Source: Actinomycetes bacterium
GTDB lineage: Bacteria; Actinomycetota; Coriobacteriia; Anaerosomatales; Anaerosomataceae
DNA: 29,077 bases
Reading direction: 5' to 3'
Assembly (NCBI GenBank): GCA_021850085.1
Contig: JAJZRZ010000001.1
Span: 1-29,077, forward strand
Of this stretch, positions 7,804 to 14,205 are shown one piece after another. How positions within the stretch are numbered: position 1 is the stretch's first letter; the number at the start of each line of letters is the position of its first letter. Under the pieces are notes generated by a model. It was not told the DNA's origin, ran no database searches, and saw nothing but the letters and a program-made list of their open reading frames with translations. The translations under genes and the position numbers were made by a program.

Positions 7804-8334
7804 TCAAGATGACGCACCTGGGGGCGGATTGGGGGTACTCCGCCTTTTACCCTTCTTGAGCTCCAAGTCCTTCACCATCGCTCGTAAGGCGGCTTCTTTG
7901 AGGGTTTCATCCTTGATGATTGAGGCCACTTTTACGGCCTGTGAATACTCGATCTCATCGAGGCCTATCGGCTTTGTGTCGTCCAAGACATAAAAGCCAG
8001 TGGTGTCCACTTCTGCGACCTTCATGAGCGCTCCCTCTCTCACCTTCTTTGAGATAGTGAAGCGCAGTGATGTGACTGATTCTTGATTCAGATGTCTATT
8101 AAGGCACTCTGTGAGTTCCGTTGACATCAGTGAGAGTTGATGTGCCCACGCCGAACTGTCCACGTAGACTATGAGTTCACCATTGTCGCGGAGCGCGAAT
8201 CCTTGGGTGTGTGCAGCGATCTCGATGCCGACCACATCCGCCCACACCTCAACGGCGGCAGCCGCGTGCCTTTTCCCTTTCTTGTCGACACGACCGAGCA
8301 TCTTCTTGGCCAATTGGTCGAGTGACTGAGTCAT
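7804..8334 (-). CDS. DUF721-domain protein (DciA-like replicative helicase loader)
   Basis: WADVVGIEIAAHT...GELIVYVDSSAWAHQL...LNRHL...LRF pattern, and the canonical position between recF and gyrB. Start is 8334 or 8349. Confidence 0.8.
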   Translation of the reverse strand: MTQSLDQLAKKMLGRVDKKGKRHAAAAVEVWADVVGIEIAAHTQGFALRDNGELIVYVDSSAWAHQLSLMSTELTECLNRHLNQESVTSLRFTISKKVREGALMKVAEVDTTGFYVLDDTKPIGLDEIEYSQAVKVASIIKDETLKEAALRAMVKDLELKKGKRRSTPNPPPGASS

Positions 8335-8350
8335 GCGCGATCGGGGCATG

Positions 8351-9458: not shown

Positions 9459-10559
9459 TCAGCTGAGACGGACCGGCATCAATAAGTATGTGAACCCATC
9501 ACCTTCAGCGAATCGGATGACGCCAGGTTTTAGTGGACTTGTGACCTCGAGCGAGACTGCCTCACTTTCGGCGACAGAAATCCCATCGAGAAGGTAGGTG
9601 TGATTGAACGCGATCTCCACATCCTCCCCGTCCGGGGTGACCTGAATATCCTCGCTCGCGTCACCCACGTCCTGCGTCGCCGCGGAAAGTGTGAGTGTGT
9701 GATCTGAGACGGCTACTCTCACGCGTAAAGGAGTGCTGTGTTGTGCCATCAACGACACTCGTTTCACCGCGTCCAAGAACTCTGCTCTGTCGACCACCGC
9801 ACGGGTCGTGTGCTCCTTCGGAAGTAGTTGACGGTAGTTCGGGAACGAGCCTTCGATTCGCCGAGAAATGAACATCGTATCGCCGAATGTGAATATGACT
9901 TGATTCTCAGCAACACCCAGTGAAACGTTCTTATTCGAACCGATGAGCTTCGCCACATCTTCCATCGCTTTACCGGGAACGACTAATTCGATCTCACCTA
10001 TAACTCCTTCGACCGGTACTTCCCGGATACATAGACGGTAAGAATCGGTGGCCACCATACGAAGTGTGCCTGAATCGACCACCGTGAGGATCCCGGTGAG
10101 GATTGGTCGGGTTTCATCTCGACTCACAGATCGGGACACTTGCTGTACGACACGCGAGAACACATCACTTGGCAAGGAGACAGTCTGGTCCGGTGTCACC
10201 TCTGGAAACTTCGGATAATCATCAGGTGATAGCGTCTTCATTGAGAACGAGGATTGAACACACTGGACCGATGCCGTCCCTGGAGTGGTCGTATCAATAA
10301 GCACCGCCGCCTCAGGGAGGCTTCTCACCACCTCGGTAAGGAGTTTGCCCGGCAGTACACTTTGGCCCGTCTGCTCGATACGTCCCTTACATGACGTGCG
10401 AATCGAAACCTCAAGATCCGTGGCTTGAAAAACGATGGAATCACCACGTGTAGATACATGGATTCCCGACAATATCGGCAGCGTCGTTCTTGATGACAGC
10501 CCCCGCGACACCACCGCAAGCGCTTCGAATAACTCGCCTCGCGCTATCGATATCTTCAT
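9459..10559 (-). CDS. dnaN: DNA polymerase III beta sliding clamp
   Basis: 366 aa; ATDLEVSI, RPILTGIL, VATDSYRL, IEGSFPNYRQLLP, C-terminal LLMPVR; lies downstream of dnaA. Confidence 0.98.
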   Translation of the reverse strand: MKISIARGELFEALAVVSRGLSSRTTLPILSGIHVSTRGDSIVFQATDLEVSIRTSCKGRIEQTGQSVLPGKLLTEVVRSLPEAAVLIDTTTPGTASVQCVQSSFSMKTLSPDDYPKFPEVTPDQTVSLPSDVFSRVVQQVSRSVSRDETRPILTGILTVVDSGTLRMVATDSYRLCIREVPVEGVIGEIELVVPGKAMEDVAKLIGSNKNVSLGVAENQVIFTFGDTMFISRRIEGSFPNYRQLLPKEHTTRAVVDRAEFLDAVKRVSLMAQHSTPLRVRVAVSDHTLTLSAATQDVGDASEDIQVTPDGEDVEIAFNHTYLLDGISVAESEAVSLEVTSPLKPGVIRFAEGDGFTYLLMPVRLS

Positions 10560-10796
10560 GCCGGGCCCCTTCTATGTCTTAGAGATATCTCAATGAAACA
10601 GTCGCAGTAATAGGTGGTGTTAGTAGTGTGGAACACGGCTGTTCTCGCTGCTAGAAACCCCTGTTCTGCCTGTGCTCTACCTGTGTGAGGATTGTTCCGG
10701 TTCATCAACATCTTCACAGAGCACAGTTATTCTCCACACATTCACACCATCGCTCACCAGCCACTGCACGGGTTATACACACGTTATCAGCTACCG
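10560..10796. other. oriC: dnaA-dnaN intergenic origin segment (DnaA boxes plus a possible unwinding element)
   Basis: TTATACACA 10773-10781 (matches TTWTNCACA), TTCTCCACA 10730-10738, and minus-strand TGTTCCACA 10627-10635 directly followed by CTACTA (DnaA-trio-like). This is the usual oriC position in Actinobacteria and for B. subtilis unwinding. Confidence 0.7.
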
Positions 10797-12164
10797 CTAG
10801 TTACGCTGACGAATCTGGTTAGTCAGAGTCTGAATCTGATTGTAGACGTCGCGCTGTTCATTCATTAGCCGTTGTATCTTCTTCTCTGCATACATCACCG
10901 TCGTGTGATCTCGGCCACCGAACTCGCTCCCTATCTTCGGAAGAGAGGAATCTGTGAGTTCTCGAGCCAAATACATGGCGATCTGCCGAGGGAAAGCTAT
11001 CGACTGCGACCGCTTGTTGCCAACAAGTTCGTTCTTGCTGATCTGATAGTAACGGCAGACCTCTTGTTGGATCACCGAGATGGAAATCGGTTTTACGGAG
11101 CGCTCAGGGAAGATGTTCTTGAGTACGCTGTGCGCAAGATCGAGATCGATCGGGTGACGCGTGACGGAGCTGAAGGCGACAACGCGCAGGAGTGCACCCC
11201 ACAACTCCCGGATGTTGCTGGAGAAGCGTTCAGCTATCAGTGATAAGACATCATCGGGCACATCATGGCCCTCAGACTGCGCTTTACGCCGGAGGATCGC
11301 GATTCGTGTCTCCAGGTCGGGTGGCTGAATATCGGCCAGCAAGCCTCCACCGAACCGCGTGCGGAGCCGCTCTTCGATATCGCCGATTTCCGCGGGTGGA
11401 CGGTCGGAAGTCATAACTATCTGTTTACCAGCCTCACGGAGTGTGTTGAATGTGTGGAAGAACTCCGTTTGGGTCCCCTCTTTGCCGGCTATGAACTGGA
11501 TGTCGTCCACGAGTAGAAGGTCGTTCTCCCGGTAAGACCTACGGAAACCCTCGATACGGTTCTTATCTCGAACCGAATCAATGAAGTCGTTCGTGAATTG
11601 CTCGCTAGATACGTACTTCACCTTCATATAAGGGTAGGCCGAACGCACGTATGCGCCGATGGCCTGAAGAAGATGTGTCTTTCCCAACCCCGCCCCACCA
11701 TATATGAACAGAGGGTTATAGGCAGATCCGGGAGCTTCAGCCACCGCAAGCGCCACATGGTAAGAGAACTGGTTGGATGGGCCTACGACGAATGAATCGA
11801 ACACATATTTGGGGTTCAGTTCGGTTTCTTCCGCGCGGCTCTTCACTTTAGGTTCCGCTACTTCGGCGAACACCACCTGCTCGACCGCCTGCTGGATGGG
11901 CGTTTCGATGAGGGGGTCACCAGAAACACTGAACCGGACCTCCATAGGCGCACCTGTCACCTGTGTTAGGGCTGATGCAAGGAGACCTGAGTACCTGGTC
12001 TTGAGCCAGTCGCGGGCGAAATCGTTTTGAACCGAGACGACCAGCTCCTGATCGATGATACCGAGCGGCGCGGTCTGTTCGAACCAGGTTTTGAATGTGG
12101 GGGTGTTCAACTCCTCACGGACGACATCAAGCGTCTTCTGCCAAACCTGTTGAGCATCAAGCAT
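10797..12164 (-). CDS. dnaA: Chromosomal replication initiator DnaA
   Basis: NPKYVFDSFVVG, Walker A GGAGLGKT, Walker B LLVDDIQF, RLRTRF, domain IV FGGRDHTTVMYA. Confidence 0.99.
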   Translation of the reverse strand: MLDAQQVWQKTLDVVREELNTPTFKTWFEQTAPLGIIDQELVVSVQNDFARDWLKTRYSGLLASALTQVTGAPMEVRFSVSGDPLIETPIQQAVEQVVFAEVAEPKVKSRAEETELNPKYVFDSFVVGPSNQFSYHVALAVAEAPGSAYNPLFIYGGAGLGKTHLLQAIGAYVRSAYPYMKVKYVSSEQFTNDFIDSVRDKNRIEGFRRSYRENDLLLVDDIQFIAGKEGTQTEFFHTFNTLREAGKQIVMTSDRPPAEIGDIEERLRTRFGGGLLADIQPPDLETRIAILRRKAQSEGHDVPDDVLSLIAERFSSNIRELWGALLRVVAFSSVTRHPIDLDLAHSVLKNIFPERSVKPISISVIQQEVCRYYQISKNELVGNKRSQSIAFPRQIAMYLARELTDSSLPKIGSEFGGRDHTTVMYAEKKIQRLMNEQRDVYNQIQTLTNQIRQRN

Positions 12165-12179
12165 GATCAGTCTCGCTCC

Positions 12180-13001
12180 TTATCGCTTGAGAAGAGCATC
12201 CAAGCAACGAACGCCGTGGTCGGTAAGCATCCGTTTACCTGCTTCATCCGCCGAAATGAGCCCAAGGAGCGTCAGTTGCTCAAGATCACGGTAAGCCGTT
12301 GACAGTCCCACCTTGAGCTCGCGCGACACGACAGTCGGTCCCACAGAGCCTAGTTCCATAGCCAAAGAAAGCACCTGTTTCTGCCGAAGGTTGAGGGCGG
12401 GAGGCTCGTAATCGTCGACGACCGGCTCAAGGATGGTCTCCACACGCTGCCATTCCGATGGTTGGTCGACTCTCAAAGTGACCACCGTACCACCACCAAG
12501 GTTGTCATCGACCTCGATCGTCCCCCCAGAGAAAGTAAGACACTCCCTCGCGACCGGCAGGCCTGAACCAACCCCACGGATCACCTGCTTCATATCCTCG
12601 GTGGCCGTCGAAAAGCCAGGCAGGAACGCACGCTCCTTATCTTGAATCCCCGGACCTTGGTCCGCGAAGCGGACGACACACCCTGACTCCAGGACGCTCA
12701 CCACCACCTCATCAAAACCGGCATGGATGAAGTTCTCCACAACCTCACGGATGACCATGTATGGAATCTGGCCACCACCATCGCGAGAGAGCTGGTACGT
12801 GCGAGCCGCGACAGCTTCGATCAACTCTCGCTCAGACCTGGCGCCAACCCGCTCAACACGCGGCGGAGCGGTCATCGCATCGTATATCGCTATCAATGCG
12901 GGTGTGGGGGCTATAGGCTCACCACCGTCGCTGCCGACGCCTGGGATAACCGTTGACACACTGGCACCGGCCACCTCAGGCCCGCTGTAGAAGGTCTCCA
13001 C
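12180..13001 (-). CDS. Uncharacterised GHKL/HATPase-fold ATP-binding protein with a C-terminal winged helix-turn-helix
   Basis: N-box REVVENFIHA, G1 DQGPGI, F-box PGFST, G2 RGVGSGL, G3 GGGTVVTL. C-terminal RQKQVL...VSRELKVGLSTAYRDLEQLTLLGLI HTH. Probable start GTG 13001 behind AGGGGG (the ORF track starts at 13079). Confidence 0.85.
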   Translation of the reverse strand: METFYSGPEVAGASVSTVIPGVGSDGGEPIAPTPALIAIYDAMTAPPRVERVGARSERELIEAVAARTYQLSRDGGGQIPYMVIREVVENFIHAGFDEVVVSVLESGCVVRFADQGPGIQDKERAFLPGFSTATEDMKQVIRGVGSGLPVARECLTFSGGTIEVDDNLGGGTVVTLRVDQPSEWQRVETILEPVVDDYEPPALNLRQKQVLSLAMELGSVGPTVVSRELKVGLSTAYRDLEQLTLLGLISADEAGKRMLTDHGVRCLDALLKR

Positions 13002-13019
13002 ACCCACCCCCTGACCAAT

Positions 13020-13556
13020 CCATTCACAGAAGCATCCACATAACCCACAAGTGACGACCTTACGAAAACACCTGTTCAAGCCCGTATCCAGAAGCCTCGC
13101 GTACCACTTGAGCCGTCAAGCCTGACATACGGTGAACAGCGGCTTTCCTCTCTATCCACAAGACTTTCCACACCTGTGGATAGACTTTCCATCACGCGAA
13201 CCGAACACACATCGAACAAGCAGGTAGAGACCCCAACGGCATTGAAAAGTGCTTTCCGGACACCTAGGAGCGGTAGAGAGATGGTTGGCCCCTGTGGAAA
13301 CAATGGAAATGCTGTCAAGAGGTGATCGACTGACCTGAGCAGCGCTGTGGATAACGAACAGGAACCACCGAGCTTCATCTGTGTACGCCAGACACATGGC
13401 AGTTCTTAGCTGCGCTTTTGCCACGAAAGATGGTACAAATACGACCAAGAGAACGGAGCTGATTGTAGCAAAGCGTACCAGCGCCCAACAACGAGGCGGA
13501 ACCGGTTATCCACAGGGTCGACACGCTTGATTCCTGCGTTTTCCACATTGTCCACA
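13020..13556. promoter_or_regulatory. oriC: Large DnaA-box cluster (upstream origin/regulatory segment)
   Basis: Perfect TTATCCACA at 13506-13514 (+) and 13346-13354 (-). Abutting TTTTCCACA 13539-13547 and TTGTCCACA 13548-13556. One-mismatch boxes at 13152-13160, 13164-13172, 13175-13183 (-) and 13293-13301 (-). Degenerate boxes at 13020, 13032 and 13041. Confidence 0.9.
13462..13470 (-). promoter_or_regulatory. Candidate extended -10 promoter (TGCTACAAT) for the GHKL-HTH/dnaA operon
   Basis: TG-C-TACAAT on the minus strand, flanked by perfect DnaA boxes at 13506 and 13346. No convincing -35 element. Confidence 0.5.
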
Positions 13557-13978: not shown

Positions 13979-14008
13979 TTGACATGTCTGGTAGTGCGCC
14001 GCTATAAT
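13979..14008 (+). promoter_or_regulatory. Consensus housekeeping-sigma promoter for the rpmH operon
   Basis: TTGACA 13979-13984, 18-nt spacer, TATAAT 14003-14008; GGAGG SD before rpmH. Confidence 0.85.
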
Positions 14009-14061: not shown

Positions 14062-14205
14062 GTGAAGCGTACGTACCAACCGAACAACCGTAAGCGGGCA
14101 AGAACCCACGGGTTCCGTAAGCGGATGTCCACGAAAGCGGGCCGCGCCATCCTGGCGGCTCGTCGCCGCAAGGGCCGCAAGATTCTGTGCCCGAGCGCCG
14201 CGTAG
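14062..14205 (+). CDS. rpmH: 50S ribosomal protein L34 (absent from the ORF track, 47 aa)
   Basis: GTG 14062 to TAG 14205: [47 protein letters not shown]. Confidence 0.98.

Follow-up and report, generated by a model that had tools for sequence, protein, structure and literature searches.

Detailed knowledge of DnaA control is limited to a few model bacteria. Among the origin binders, AdpA of Streptomyces, MtrA of Mycobacterium, Spo0A of Bacillus and CtrA of Caulobacter are gated by nucleotide or phosphorylation; to our knowledge, none of the four is encoded in the dnaA operon. We also know of no initiation regulator for Coriobacteriia, which include abundant human-gut genera, or for most deep-branching Gram-positive lineages. 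In structure, the closest described protein is DIP2311 of Corynebacterium diphtheriae (PDB 3LMM), a COG2865-type "Schlafen/AlbA_2" putative regulator that is itself functionally uncharacterized, and we are aware of no linkage of DIP2311-type genes to dnaA. The gene described here encodes a GHKL ATP-binding domain followed by a winged helix-turn-helix (wHTH) and lies directly 5' of dnaA in our window, the whole 29,077-nt stretch of DNA that was analyzed. Its features are as follows:

12180..13001, minus strand: GHKL-wHTH gene, read from GTG (13001) to TAA and encoding 273 aa (ORF and translation)
12462..12902, minus strand: GHKL/Bergerat ATP-binding domain, residues 34-180 (Pfam HATPase_c, invariant columns, model secondary structure, Foldseek and VIA)
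12183..12410, minus strand: MarR-type wHTH, residues 198-273 (VIA superpositions, Pfam in relatives, NCBIfam)
12165..12179, minus strand: spacer of 15 nt from the TAA stop to the dnaA ATG, reading TAAGGAGCGAGACTGATCATG (sequence)
10797..12164, minus strand: dnaA, 455 aa, second gene of the presumed operon (ORF; DnaA in relatives)

The GHKL-wHTH gene is a real gene. Its longest frame extends to 13079 (TTG, 299 aa), and we take the GTG at 13001 as the start because the database protein P0002, 100% identical to the product, has 273 aa, because the N-terminus of the homologs is conserved (M-[KRE]-[ST]-F-Y), and because a GAGGGGG-like Shine-Dalgarno sequence precedes the GTG in 11 relatives. Residue numbers in the motifs below are those of P0002, and the AF2 model of the protein has a mean pLDDT of 85. 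The span originally predicted, 12164-13001, was right at its upper end; at the lower end, 12164 is the first base of dnaA and the gene ends at 12180. The gene is uncharacterized, with no paper or named family found for it: a search of one literature library, which included the presumed locus tag of an Eggerthella-type homolog, returned nothing relevant on the protein, and database annotation agrees with the original statement that similar proteins are named just "ATP-binding protein [Coriobacteriia bacterium]."

The ATP-binding domain matches Pfam HATPase_c (PF02518) with E = 4e-12 and 47 bits against a gathering cut-off of 26.4, and all 55 family members score above the cut-off. It contains an N-box (E86-V-V-E89-N90-F-I-H93, in which N90 is the Mg2+ ligand Asn), a G1 box (D114-Q-G-P-G118), a P128-G-F motif, a G2 box (G143-V-G-S-G147) and a G3 box (G171-T), all invariant or near-invariant in the 55 homologs; E86, N90, H93, D114, G116, G118, G143 and G147 are fully invariant. 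A conserved N-terminal β-hairpin ("ALIAIYD...PRVE") is also part of the domain. From these intact motifs, the protein is predicted to bind or hydrolyze ATP. However, it has no transducer or other GHL-type second domain to supply the γ-phosphate lysine, and robust ATPase activity is therefore not assured, a point against the explanation that we favor below. A Pfam scan of the protein (E<=1) gave no match to HisKA or to a receiver, and since its highest 19-residue Kyte-Doolittle window is 1.29, it has no transmembrane segment. The original prediction of a full Bergerat-fold motif set, with no His-phosphoacceptor, receiver or transmembrane segment, is thus upheld by the profile scores, the homologs and the hydropathy.

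The best sequence-profile matches are histidine-kinase CA domains (KinB 3D36, WalK/YycG 3SL2, HK853, CpxA and CheA P4; E = 5e-10 to 1e-6), which share its N, G1, F-like, G2 and G3 boxes and are also found, along with 3LMM, by Foldseek and VIA. In contrast to histidine kinases, our protein lacks the DHp/HisKA domain, the phospho-acceptor His, a sensor or membrane part and a cognate response regulator, and it adds to the CA domain an N-terminal β-hairpin and helix, a Glu at -4 in the N-box and a directly fused output domain. It does not look like a two-component kinase: HisKA is absent and its neighbors are rpmH and dnaA. A second comparison is with SpoIIAB/RsbW and PDK/BCKDK, which share the small stand-alone GHKL module and an N-box with Glu at -4 and a basic residue or His near +3/+4, whereas GHL ATPases have Asp at +3. 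The protein could accordingly be read as a GHKL-class Ser/Thr kinase or partner-switching factor that phosphorylates or sequesters a protein, with DnaA as the obvious candidate and the wHTH as a DNA tether or protein-interaction module. The N-box (E86xxxN90xxH93) is of this type, the single small GHKL domain without transducer recalls SpoIIAB, the PDB profile search ranks BCKDK and PDK chains among its better matches (E ~1e-7), and some sources name homologs "anti-sigma regulatory factor (Ser/Thr protein kinase)." We nevertheless regard this reading as quite unlikely, for HATPase_c_2 matches weakly and in only 8/55 members, TIGR01925 (SpoIIAB) reaches 15.1 bits against a cut-off of 135, the conserved neighborhood holds no STAS antagonist or sigma-factor gene, and the wHTH, which SpoIIAB/RsbW and PDK/BCKDK lack, retains its DNA-contacting features (R238 and the wing R257).

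The wHTH superposes in VIA on MarR, MepR, Hpr, Csa3 and DNA-bound MarR structures with Z 12-13 and rmsd 1.1-2 Å. Pfam wHTH models match the window protein weakly (TrmB, E = 0.1), and the NCBIfam Csa3-HTH model gives 1.7e-4; in the Eggerthella-type homolog, Pfam wHTH models exceed their cut-offs, and TrmB, HTH_IclR and HVO_A0261_N are each matched by 47-50 of the 55 family members. Taken with the superpositions, these matches in relatives bear out the C-terminal wHTH of the original prediction. The recognition helix reads "..LSTAYRDL..", with R238 invariant, and the wing is G255-K-R257. Residues 198-273 superpose on MarR, MepR, Hpr/ScoC and OhrR, and the recognition-helix Arg and the wing Arg are conserved. 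Compared with the MarR family, only the wHTH core is present: the alignments reach MarR chains at roughly positions 30-115, and Pfam MarR and MarR_2 stay below their cut-offs. The N- and C-terminal dimerization helices of MarR are missing; any dimerization would have to come from the GHKL domain. Between the two domains, the linker varies and is sometimes ~120 aa long and Pro/Gln-rich. Altogether, the domain searches support the reading of the architecture as a GHKL ATP-binding domain plus wHTH without phosphorelay parts.

At the junction with dnaA, the TAA stop overlaps the dnaA Shine-Dalgarno sequence TAAGGAG (12176-12182) and is followed at 15 nt by the dnaA ATG, just as first described. 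Across 97 non-identical related loci, the distance to dnaA is 13 nt at the median; 6 loci overlap and 57 have gaps of 1-20 nt. In Eggerthellaceae-type loci the gap widens to 60-250 nt, and a promoter for dnaA may lie inside the gene; both points speak against the explanation that we favor. A DnaA 56-85% identical follows 3' of the homolog in all relatives. Rosetta-stone fusion with DnaA was considered and rejected: the suspiciously long open frames of four loci resolved into separate frames or contained stops, and no fusion-length protein was found among the best 150 of 1.84 billion proteins. A co-fold of DnaA with the GHKL-wHTH protein scored 0.26 (mark 0.32), which we take neither for nor against binding.

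Across three phyla, neither the position of the gene nor its coupling to dnaA varies. A homolog lies directly 5' of dnaA on the same strand in 119/119 judgeable related loci (20/20, 19/19 and 80/80), the linkage across a clade for which the neighborhood check had been proposed, and coordinates agree in 38 relatives. The conserved order is yidC-(yidD)-rnpA-rpmH / ghkl-dnaA-dnaN-recF, and the gene is tied to dnaA as tightly as dnaN is. Genome surveys found it in 184/201 genomes of Coriobacteriia, in 146/401 of Actinomycetota, where it occurs in most deep-branching classes, in 79/94 of a Sysuimicrobiota-type phylum and in 17/121 of a Bacillota-type phylum; "lineage-specific," as it was first called, is therefore too narrow for a family that spans at least three phyla. 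Carriers include a Rubrobacter-type strain and an Eggerthella-type strain in whose genome this gene comes first. There is one copy per genome, a search of plasmids and phages found no copies, and ~399 clusters (50% identity, E<=1e-30) are present among 1.84 billion proteins. In degree of conservation, the ATP-binding domain roughly equals the DNA-binding domain of DnaA (mean p-distance 0.48, against 0.49 for DnaA domain IV and 0.65 for domain I). Protein distances correlate with DnaA distances (r = 0.64-0.78), which is consistent with co-inheritance, and the major lineages form clades in the family tree. In a mirror-tree comparison the highest correlation was with DnaA domain I (r = 0.73-0.78; partial r ~0.5 given domain III), which we do not take as a sign of contact because shared rate and phylogeny confound it. 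Some complete genomes within this order, such as G040 (100% complete), have lost the gene; it is therefore not universally indispensable, which counts against our preferred explanation. The ORF upstream in G040 was rejected as a gene remnant, being dissimilar (hhalign probability 0.1%).

The DNA around the gene has the following features:

13020..13049, minus strand: three degenerate reverse-oriented DnaA boxes, 19-48 nt 5' of the GTG (sequence)
13152..13183, minus strand: triple DnaA-box cassette CTATCCACA-GG-TGTGGAAAG-TCT-TGTGGATAG (sequence and relatives)
13152..13556, strand not assigned: DnaA-box cluster 5' of the gene, six boxes with at most 1 mismatch (box scan)
12994..13387, strand not assigned: metatranscriptome contig, 100% identity, word depth 4.2 (single contig, one library)
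13979-14008: perfect sigma-70-like promoter upstream of rpmH (promoter scan)
14062..14205, plus strand: rpmH, divergent from the GHKL-wHTH gene (translation)
10730..10781, plus strand: pair of DnaA boxes within the dnaA-dnaN spacer of 237 nt, either box with 1 mismatch (box scan)

The whole window contains 14 DnaA boxes with at most 1 mismatch, against 2.3 expected, and 14 or more were found in 0/100 shuffles. The two boxes between dnaA and dnaN are likely the second half of a bipartite origin. In related loci, rpmH-ghkl spacers (106 loci) carry 6.5 boxes/kb and dnaA-dnaN spacers (77 loci; 59% A+T) 7.9 boxes/kb, against 0.3/kb in coding controls, an enrichment of 20-25 fold on either side of the ghkl-dnaA pair; rpmH is divergent and 284-1091 nt 5' of the gene in 106/107 loci. 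The three degenerate boxes that had been placed shortly 5' of the start are indeed there: TGTGGGTTA (13041-13049, 2 mismatches), TGTGGATGC (13032-13040, 2 mismatches, its TGTGGA core invariant in 11/11 relatives) and TGTGAATGG (13020-13028, 3 mismatches). The metatranscribed stretch could be the leader of the presumed ghkl-dnaA operon. An Rfam search of this region gave no family match, and a structured leader RNA was rejected, as the pairing predicted by RNAalifold is confined to the invariant inverted DnaA boxes and has a covariation term of ~0.

We considered the palindromic triple-box cassette CCACA-NN-TGTGGA-N5-8-TGTGGA as the GHKL-wHTH protein's own site and rejected it, since the pattern is common in gene-less families (such as f37 with 10/10 and f36 with 13/19). 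The triple-box cassette occurs once per genome in 141/401 Actinomycetota (a tally that includes one unpublished genome, G518, used for no other claim), among them families without the gene, and it is therefore not specific to the gene; an exact-pattern search did not find it in the carrier families f24, f26 and f28. With DnaA boxes masked, searches of the rpmH-ghkl spacer by k-mers, by inverted and direct dyads (counted over 42 dereplicated loci) and by a Gibbs sampler gave no second motif common to the lineages, and yielded only rpmH promoter elements and "cGGAAAGc." In these spacers, GGAAAG mostly occurs as the DnaA-box variant TGTGGAAAG; the CGGAAAG sites left over show a modest enrichment (18 in 13/42 loci; 4 in controls) and might represent degenerate DnaA boxes.

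The lack of a second motif is unexpected for a sequence-specific regulator with such a conserved recognition helix and stands against our preferred explanation. It would suit an ordinary ligand- or ATP-responsive transcription factor, one with a replication-unrelated regulon or autoregulation, placed beside dnaA for origin-proximal dosage or growth-rate-coupled expression. MarR-type wHTH proteins overwhelmingly regulate transcription, and this reading also fits the loss of the gene, with nothing in its place, from one or more complete genomes within the order. We consider it unlikely, however: such strict synteny with operon-type spacing over three phyla is rare for unrelated neighbors, no copy was found at other genomic sites or on mobile elements, and the gene's stop codon forms part of the dnaA ribosome-binding site. 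The missing motif fits non-specific DNA binding as well. The protein might then be an origin-architecture factor, an ATP-driven dimerizing clamp or bridge in the manner of MORC or MutL that joins the two flanking DnaA-box clusters with low sequence specificity. The ghkl-dnaA pair does lie between two such clusters in most lineages, and the variable linker, in its long Pro/Gln-rich form, would suit a flexible bridge. The ExxEN form of the N-box is MutL-like, HATPase_c_3 (MutL/MORC type) matches 20/55 members, and MutL N-terminal domains are among the PDB and NCBIfam matches. With the S5/transducer domain and coiled coil absent, and with a strongly conserved recognition helix that points to a specific target, we think this idea very improbable.

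We return to the reading that we prefer. Since a conserved gene stands directly before dnaA in every inspected locus, in at least three phyla, it is a strong candidate for a new partner or regulator of chromosome replication. We propose that its product, made along with DnaA, serves replication initiation as an accessory factor that binds DNA under ATP control; judging from sequence and models, we put the probability of this reading at about 0.55. The protein would be soluble, with a GHKL Mg-ATP-binding domain that appears catalytically complete by its motifs, a variable linker and a MarR-type wHTH. Its gene would come first in a ghkl-dnaA operon that is ancient and vertically inherited and is flanked by both DnaA-box clusters of a bipartite origin (rpmH / boxes / ghkl-dnaA / boxes / dnaN), so that the protein would share its mRNA with DnaA and their translation would be coupled. 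Nucleotide-dependent dimerization is probable, as in other GHKL proteins, and by binding or hydrolyzing ATP the GHKL domain would turn the activity of the wHTH on or off, either at the origin or near the dnaA promoter. This switching would tune initiation or dnaA expression. In this scheme we infer co-transcription, DNA binding, ATP gating and the effect on initiation.

In a bolder form, the family could be an ancient and previously unrecognized class of initiation factor, in which a GHKL switch and a wHTH, co-translated with DnaA, license or restrain initiation at a bipartite origin or act on DnaA itself. We offer this tentatively, with chances that fall a little short of even. Should it hold, such a factor would work in deep-branching Actinomycetota, including human-gut Coriobacteriia, in the Sysuimicrobiota-type phylum and in some Bacillota. 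The protein bears the hallmarks of a nucleotide switch fused to a DNA reader. Action on initiation would make it a new initiation-regulator family and a new use of the GHKL fold, and the long-standing question of what ties initiation to growth or energy state beyond the model phyla would become directly testable. If the protein does not act on initiation, one of the most invariant origin-side gene pairings needs another explanation.

Compared with known systems, the best structural match, and the sole one spanning both domains, is the C-terminal half of DIP2311, with a GHKL-like domain and then a wHTH in the same order. It is the top Foldseek match (E = 5e-9, ~260 columns), and VIA aligns 215 residues with Z 15.1 (model 30-269 to chain 235-496), in agreement with the likeness to HATPase_c_4-HTH regulators noted in the original prediction. 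DIP2311 differs in sequence (16-18% identity) and has an extra N-terminal AlbA_2 domain. The latter is missing from our protein, whose N-terminal region is too short for it in the model: only ~55 residues precede the N-box helix, modeled as a disordered tail, a β-hairpin and one helix. HATPase_c_4 and AlbA_2 gave no Pfam match in the window protein (E<=1) and are not among the 25 families commonest across the 55 members. Pfam, NCBIfam, PDB profile and fold searches found no homology to YabA, SirA, Hda, DiaA, HobA, SeqA, Soj, DnaD and others, in line with the earlier claim that the known initiation regulators differ in architecture. The likeness to AdpA, MtrA, Spo0A and CtrA is a functional analogy only; their switching modules are unrelated in sequence or fold to that of our protein; the shared mode that we would expect is oriC occupancy switched by ATP or phosphoryl chemistry. 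Under the bolder form of the proposal, the GHKL-wHTH factor would do in these lineages what YabA, Hda, SirA and their like do elsewhere.

The region around ghkl is a standard origin region plus one additional gene, with the following features:

7804-8349, minus strand: DciA-family gene (helicase operator), between recF and gyrB; match to Pfam DciA at 8e-17
9459-10559, minus strand: dnaN, ORF
10797-12164, minus strand: dnaA, ORF
12180-13001, minus strand: ghkl, directly upstream of dnaA; start GTG at 13001, ORF end at 12180, 273 aa
13152-13183, minus strand: triple DnaA-box cassette, CTATCCACA-GG-TGTGGAAAG-TCT-TGTGGATAG
13201-13218, minus strand: TGTTCGA / TGTTCGG, a direct repeat of 11-nt period that follows ACCTGC
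14062-14205: rpmH, upstream of ghkl and divergent from it; its promoter at 13979-14008 is a perfect one of sigma-70 type

Further upstream, and likewise divergent from ghkl, lie rnpA, yidD, yidC, jag, rsmG, parA and parB, while recF, the DciA gene, gyrB and gyrA follow past dnaN. Since a DciA-family gene is present, helicase loading in this organism presumably takes the DciA route. The longest reading frame of ghkl opens at TTG 13079 and would encode 299 aa. Three observations point to the GTG at 13001 as the start instead: the 100%-identical database entry, whose residue numbers we use, has a length of 273 aa; the Shine-Dalgarno sequence and start are conserved in an alignment of upstream DNA from 11 relatives; and the DNA upstream of the GTG is conserved as DnaA boxes, not as codons. 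In that alignment, a GAGGGGG-type Shine-Dalgarno sequence precedes GTG/ATG-AAG-TCC-TTC (M-K-S-F-Y), and the window reads GTG-GAG-ACC-TTC-TAC at the same site. At the other end of the gene, GGAG comes directly after the TAA stop (12180-12182), and the dnaA ATG lies 15 nt past the stop.

The original prediction tied ghkl to dnaA, and the neighbourhoods of its homologs bear this out. By tblastn of DnaA on fetched loci, in sets that partly overlap and contain identical sequences, dnaA lies immediately downstream on the same strand in 20/20 loci of relatives, in 19/20 loci of other Actinomycetota families (the twentieth is cut by a circular contig end) and in 80/80 species loci. Among 97 non-identical loci, a median of 13 nt (interquartile range 9-36) separates the ghkl stop from the start of dnaA; the genes overlap in 6 loci, are 1-20 nt apart in 57 and more than 60 nt apart in 11. 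The divergent rpmH is found upstream in 106 of 107 loci. Across at least three phyla, the operon-type coupling of ghkl to dnaA does not vary. Major lineages form clades in a FastTree tree of the ghkl protein, and the pairwise distances of this protein and of DnaA are correlated (r = 0.64-0.78), both of which fit vertical co-inheritance of the two genes. The ATP-binding domain of ghkl (mean p-distance 0.48) is conserved like domain IV of DnaA (0.49) and more than domain I (0.65). We infer that the ghkl product and DnaA are made together and probably act in the same process. Read differently, the linkage could mean that ghkl encodes an unrelated regulator that is kept beside dnaA for dosage or co-expression; we rank this reading second of four and consider it rather unlikely.

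The gene is widespread and was single-copy in the genomes sampled; no copy was found in plasmid and phage collections. With the protein as query, a homolog was detected in 38 of the 40 relatives searched within the order, and the coordinates of all 38 adjoin dnaA on the same strand. Class-wide sampling gave 184/201 genomes (179/187 of those of good quality). Across the phylum Actinomycetota the count was 146/401, with some large families wholly without the gene and others complete. The 80 best species-level loci, obtained by a pattern-plus-tblastn scan, carry titles such as Coriobacteriia, Thermoleophilia, Candidatus Humimicrobiia, Ca. Hakubella, Ca. Sysuimicrobium, Ca. Geohabitans, Ca. Fervidifonticultor, "Armatimonadota" CSP1-3 and Limnochordia/Clostridia. 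The gene is present in 79/94 genomes of the phylum of the Sysuimicrobium genome and in 17/121 of that of the Limnochordia MAG. When 1.84 billion representatives were searched exhaustively with HMMER, 399 clusters passed E<=1e-30 and 969 passed E<=1e-10, clearly set apart from 67,699 generic HATPase_c matches; the best 150 matches are 214-491 aa long. In gut-type Coriobacteriia (locus L123:34-1182 and other Coriobacteriales/Eggerthellales-type loci), the homolog reaches 380-520 aa, carries a Pro/Gln-rich linker of low complexity, about 120 aa long or longer, between the GHKL domain and the winged helix (wHTH), and is separated from dnaA by 60-250 nt. The deposited sequence of one complete genome (G137; 3,632,260 bp) opens with such a homolog (L123:34-1182), not with dnaA. 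The gene can be lost: the genome G040, which belongs to the same order and is 100% complete, is without it. Upstream of its dnaA (locus L127, G040:C39:1-4500) there are a 483-aa ORF with a transposase-like HTH_38 domain and a spurious Arg-rich ORF, which suggests loss by rearrangement.

The ghkl-dnaA pair sits between two clusters of DnaA boxes, as follows from box densities of 6.5 per kb in the rpmH-ghkl spacer (106 loci) and 7.9 per kb in the dnaA-dnaN spacer (77 loci), against 0.3 per kb in coding controls (105 loci). The window itself holds 14 boxes with at most one mismatch where 2.3 are expected; six of them lie in 13152-13556 and two in the dnaA-dnaN spacer. Three degenerate boxes stand 19-48 nt ahead of the ghkl start codon; in one of them, the core does not vary among relatives. 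An ATP-driven clamp that bridges the origin is the fourth-ranked reading of the ghkl product, and we regard it as a long shot. The triple-box cassette, a head-to-head pair 2 nt apart with a third box 3 nt on, is conserved in 54/106 loci. Its pattern, CCACA-NN-TGTGGA-N5-8-TGTGGA, occurs in 141/401 sampled Actinomycetota (a tally that takes in one unpublished genome, G518), usually exactly once per genome, and the reversed control gave 0 matches in the same sample. We considered this cassette as a private site of the ghkl protein and rejected the idea, because it is also found once per genome in many families that are without the gene; being present in families with and without ghkl, it is a feature of actinobacterial origins. 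Across 11 relatives from the same family, the TGTTCGA/TGTTCGG repeat hardly varies (consensus ACCTGCnTGTTCGAcGnGTGTTCGATGG); it did not turn up as a motif shared by other lineages. Once the DnaA boxes were masked, motif searches in the rpmH-ghkl spacer revealed nothing else that the lineages have in common.

A simple scan found no sigma-70-like promoter for ghkl or inside it. In a public metatranscriptome from a subsurface metagenome, whose contigs carry no strand, a single 394-nt contig (word depth 4.2) is 100% identical to 12994-13387, that is, to the DNA just upstream of the ghkl start codon and the first 8 nt of the ORF; the same run gave no contig on the coding regions of ghkl, dnaA or rpmH. 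This contig may represent an abundant leader or non-coding RNA that crosses the DnaA boxes, or DNA carry-over. The interval showed no Rfam family match and no covariation.

The ghkl product scores 47 bits against Pfam HATPase_c (cut-off 26.4). Two alignments, of 33 and of 55 homologs drawn from several phyla, show the following residues as invariant or nearly so: E86, E89, N90 and H93 of the N-box (IREVVENFIHA); D114, G116, P117 and G118 of G1; K122, P128, G129 and A133 of the lid; G143, G145 and G147 of G2; and also G160 and G171. The gene is genuine, strong purifying selection acts on it, and its product, judged by sequence, has the complete set of nucleotide-binding and catalytic motifs. 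No HisKA, receiver or other domain was found in it, and no hydrophobic segment (maximum KD19 = 1.29). In the AlphaFold2 model built from the 33-sequence alignment (mean pLDDT 85), a disordered tail takes up about 33 residues at the N-terminus, ahead of a conserved beta-hairpin ("ARIAVYD...PRV.E" motif) and the alpha/beta GHKL sandwich; residues 181-197 form a linker modelled with low confidence, and residues 198-273 a winged helix of three helices and a beta-wing. This winged helix superposes on MarR-family domains, DNA-bound ones included, with Z 12-13 and rmsd 1.1-2 Å. In its recognition helix ("..LSTAYRDL.."), the arginine R238 is invariant, and the G-K-R of the wing is retained. The Pfam wHTH models HVO_A0261_N, TrmB and HTH_IclR match 47-50 of 55 family members and exceed curated cut-offs in an Eggerthella-type homolog. 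The protein has a wHTH that is predicted to read DNA.

We propose that the ghkl product would be a DNA-binding factor, gated by ATP, that acts at the origin or at the dnaA promoter, a reading which ranks first of the four readings, at slightly better than even odds (about 0.55). The N-box, with Glu at -4 and His at +3, would fit an ATP-hydrolysing or Ser/Thr-phosphorylating enzyme more than a histidine kinase, in a comparison with the MutL, GyrB, SpoIIAB and PDK motifs. A GHKL Ser/Thr kinase or partner-switch protein acting on DnaA is accordingly among the readings; it ranks third, and we think it improbable. Databases name the homologs "ATP-binding protein", "anti-sigma regulatory factor" or "histidine kinase"; our literature search found no paper that mentions the gene, and the AlphaFold-DB fold clusters yielded no name. 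The only solved structure that matches both domains of the ghkl product is DIP2311 (3LMM; Foldseek E=5e-9, VIA Z 15.1 over 215 residues), an uncharacterised AlbA_2-HATPase_c_4-wHTH protein. To the CA domains of histidine kinases, to BCKDK/PDK and to MutL N-termini, the ATP-binding domain bears a likeness at the superfamily level only.
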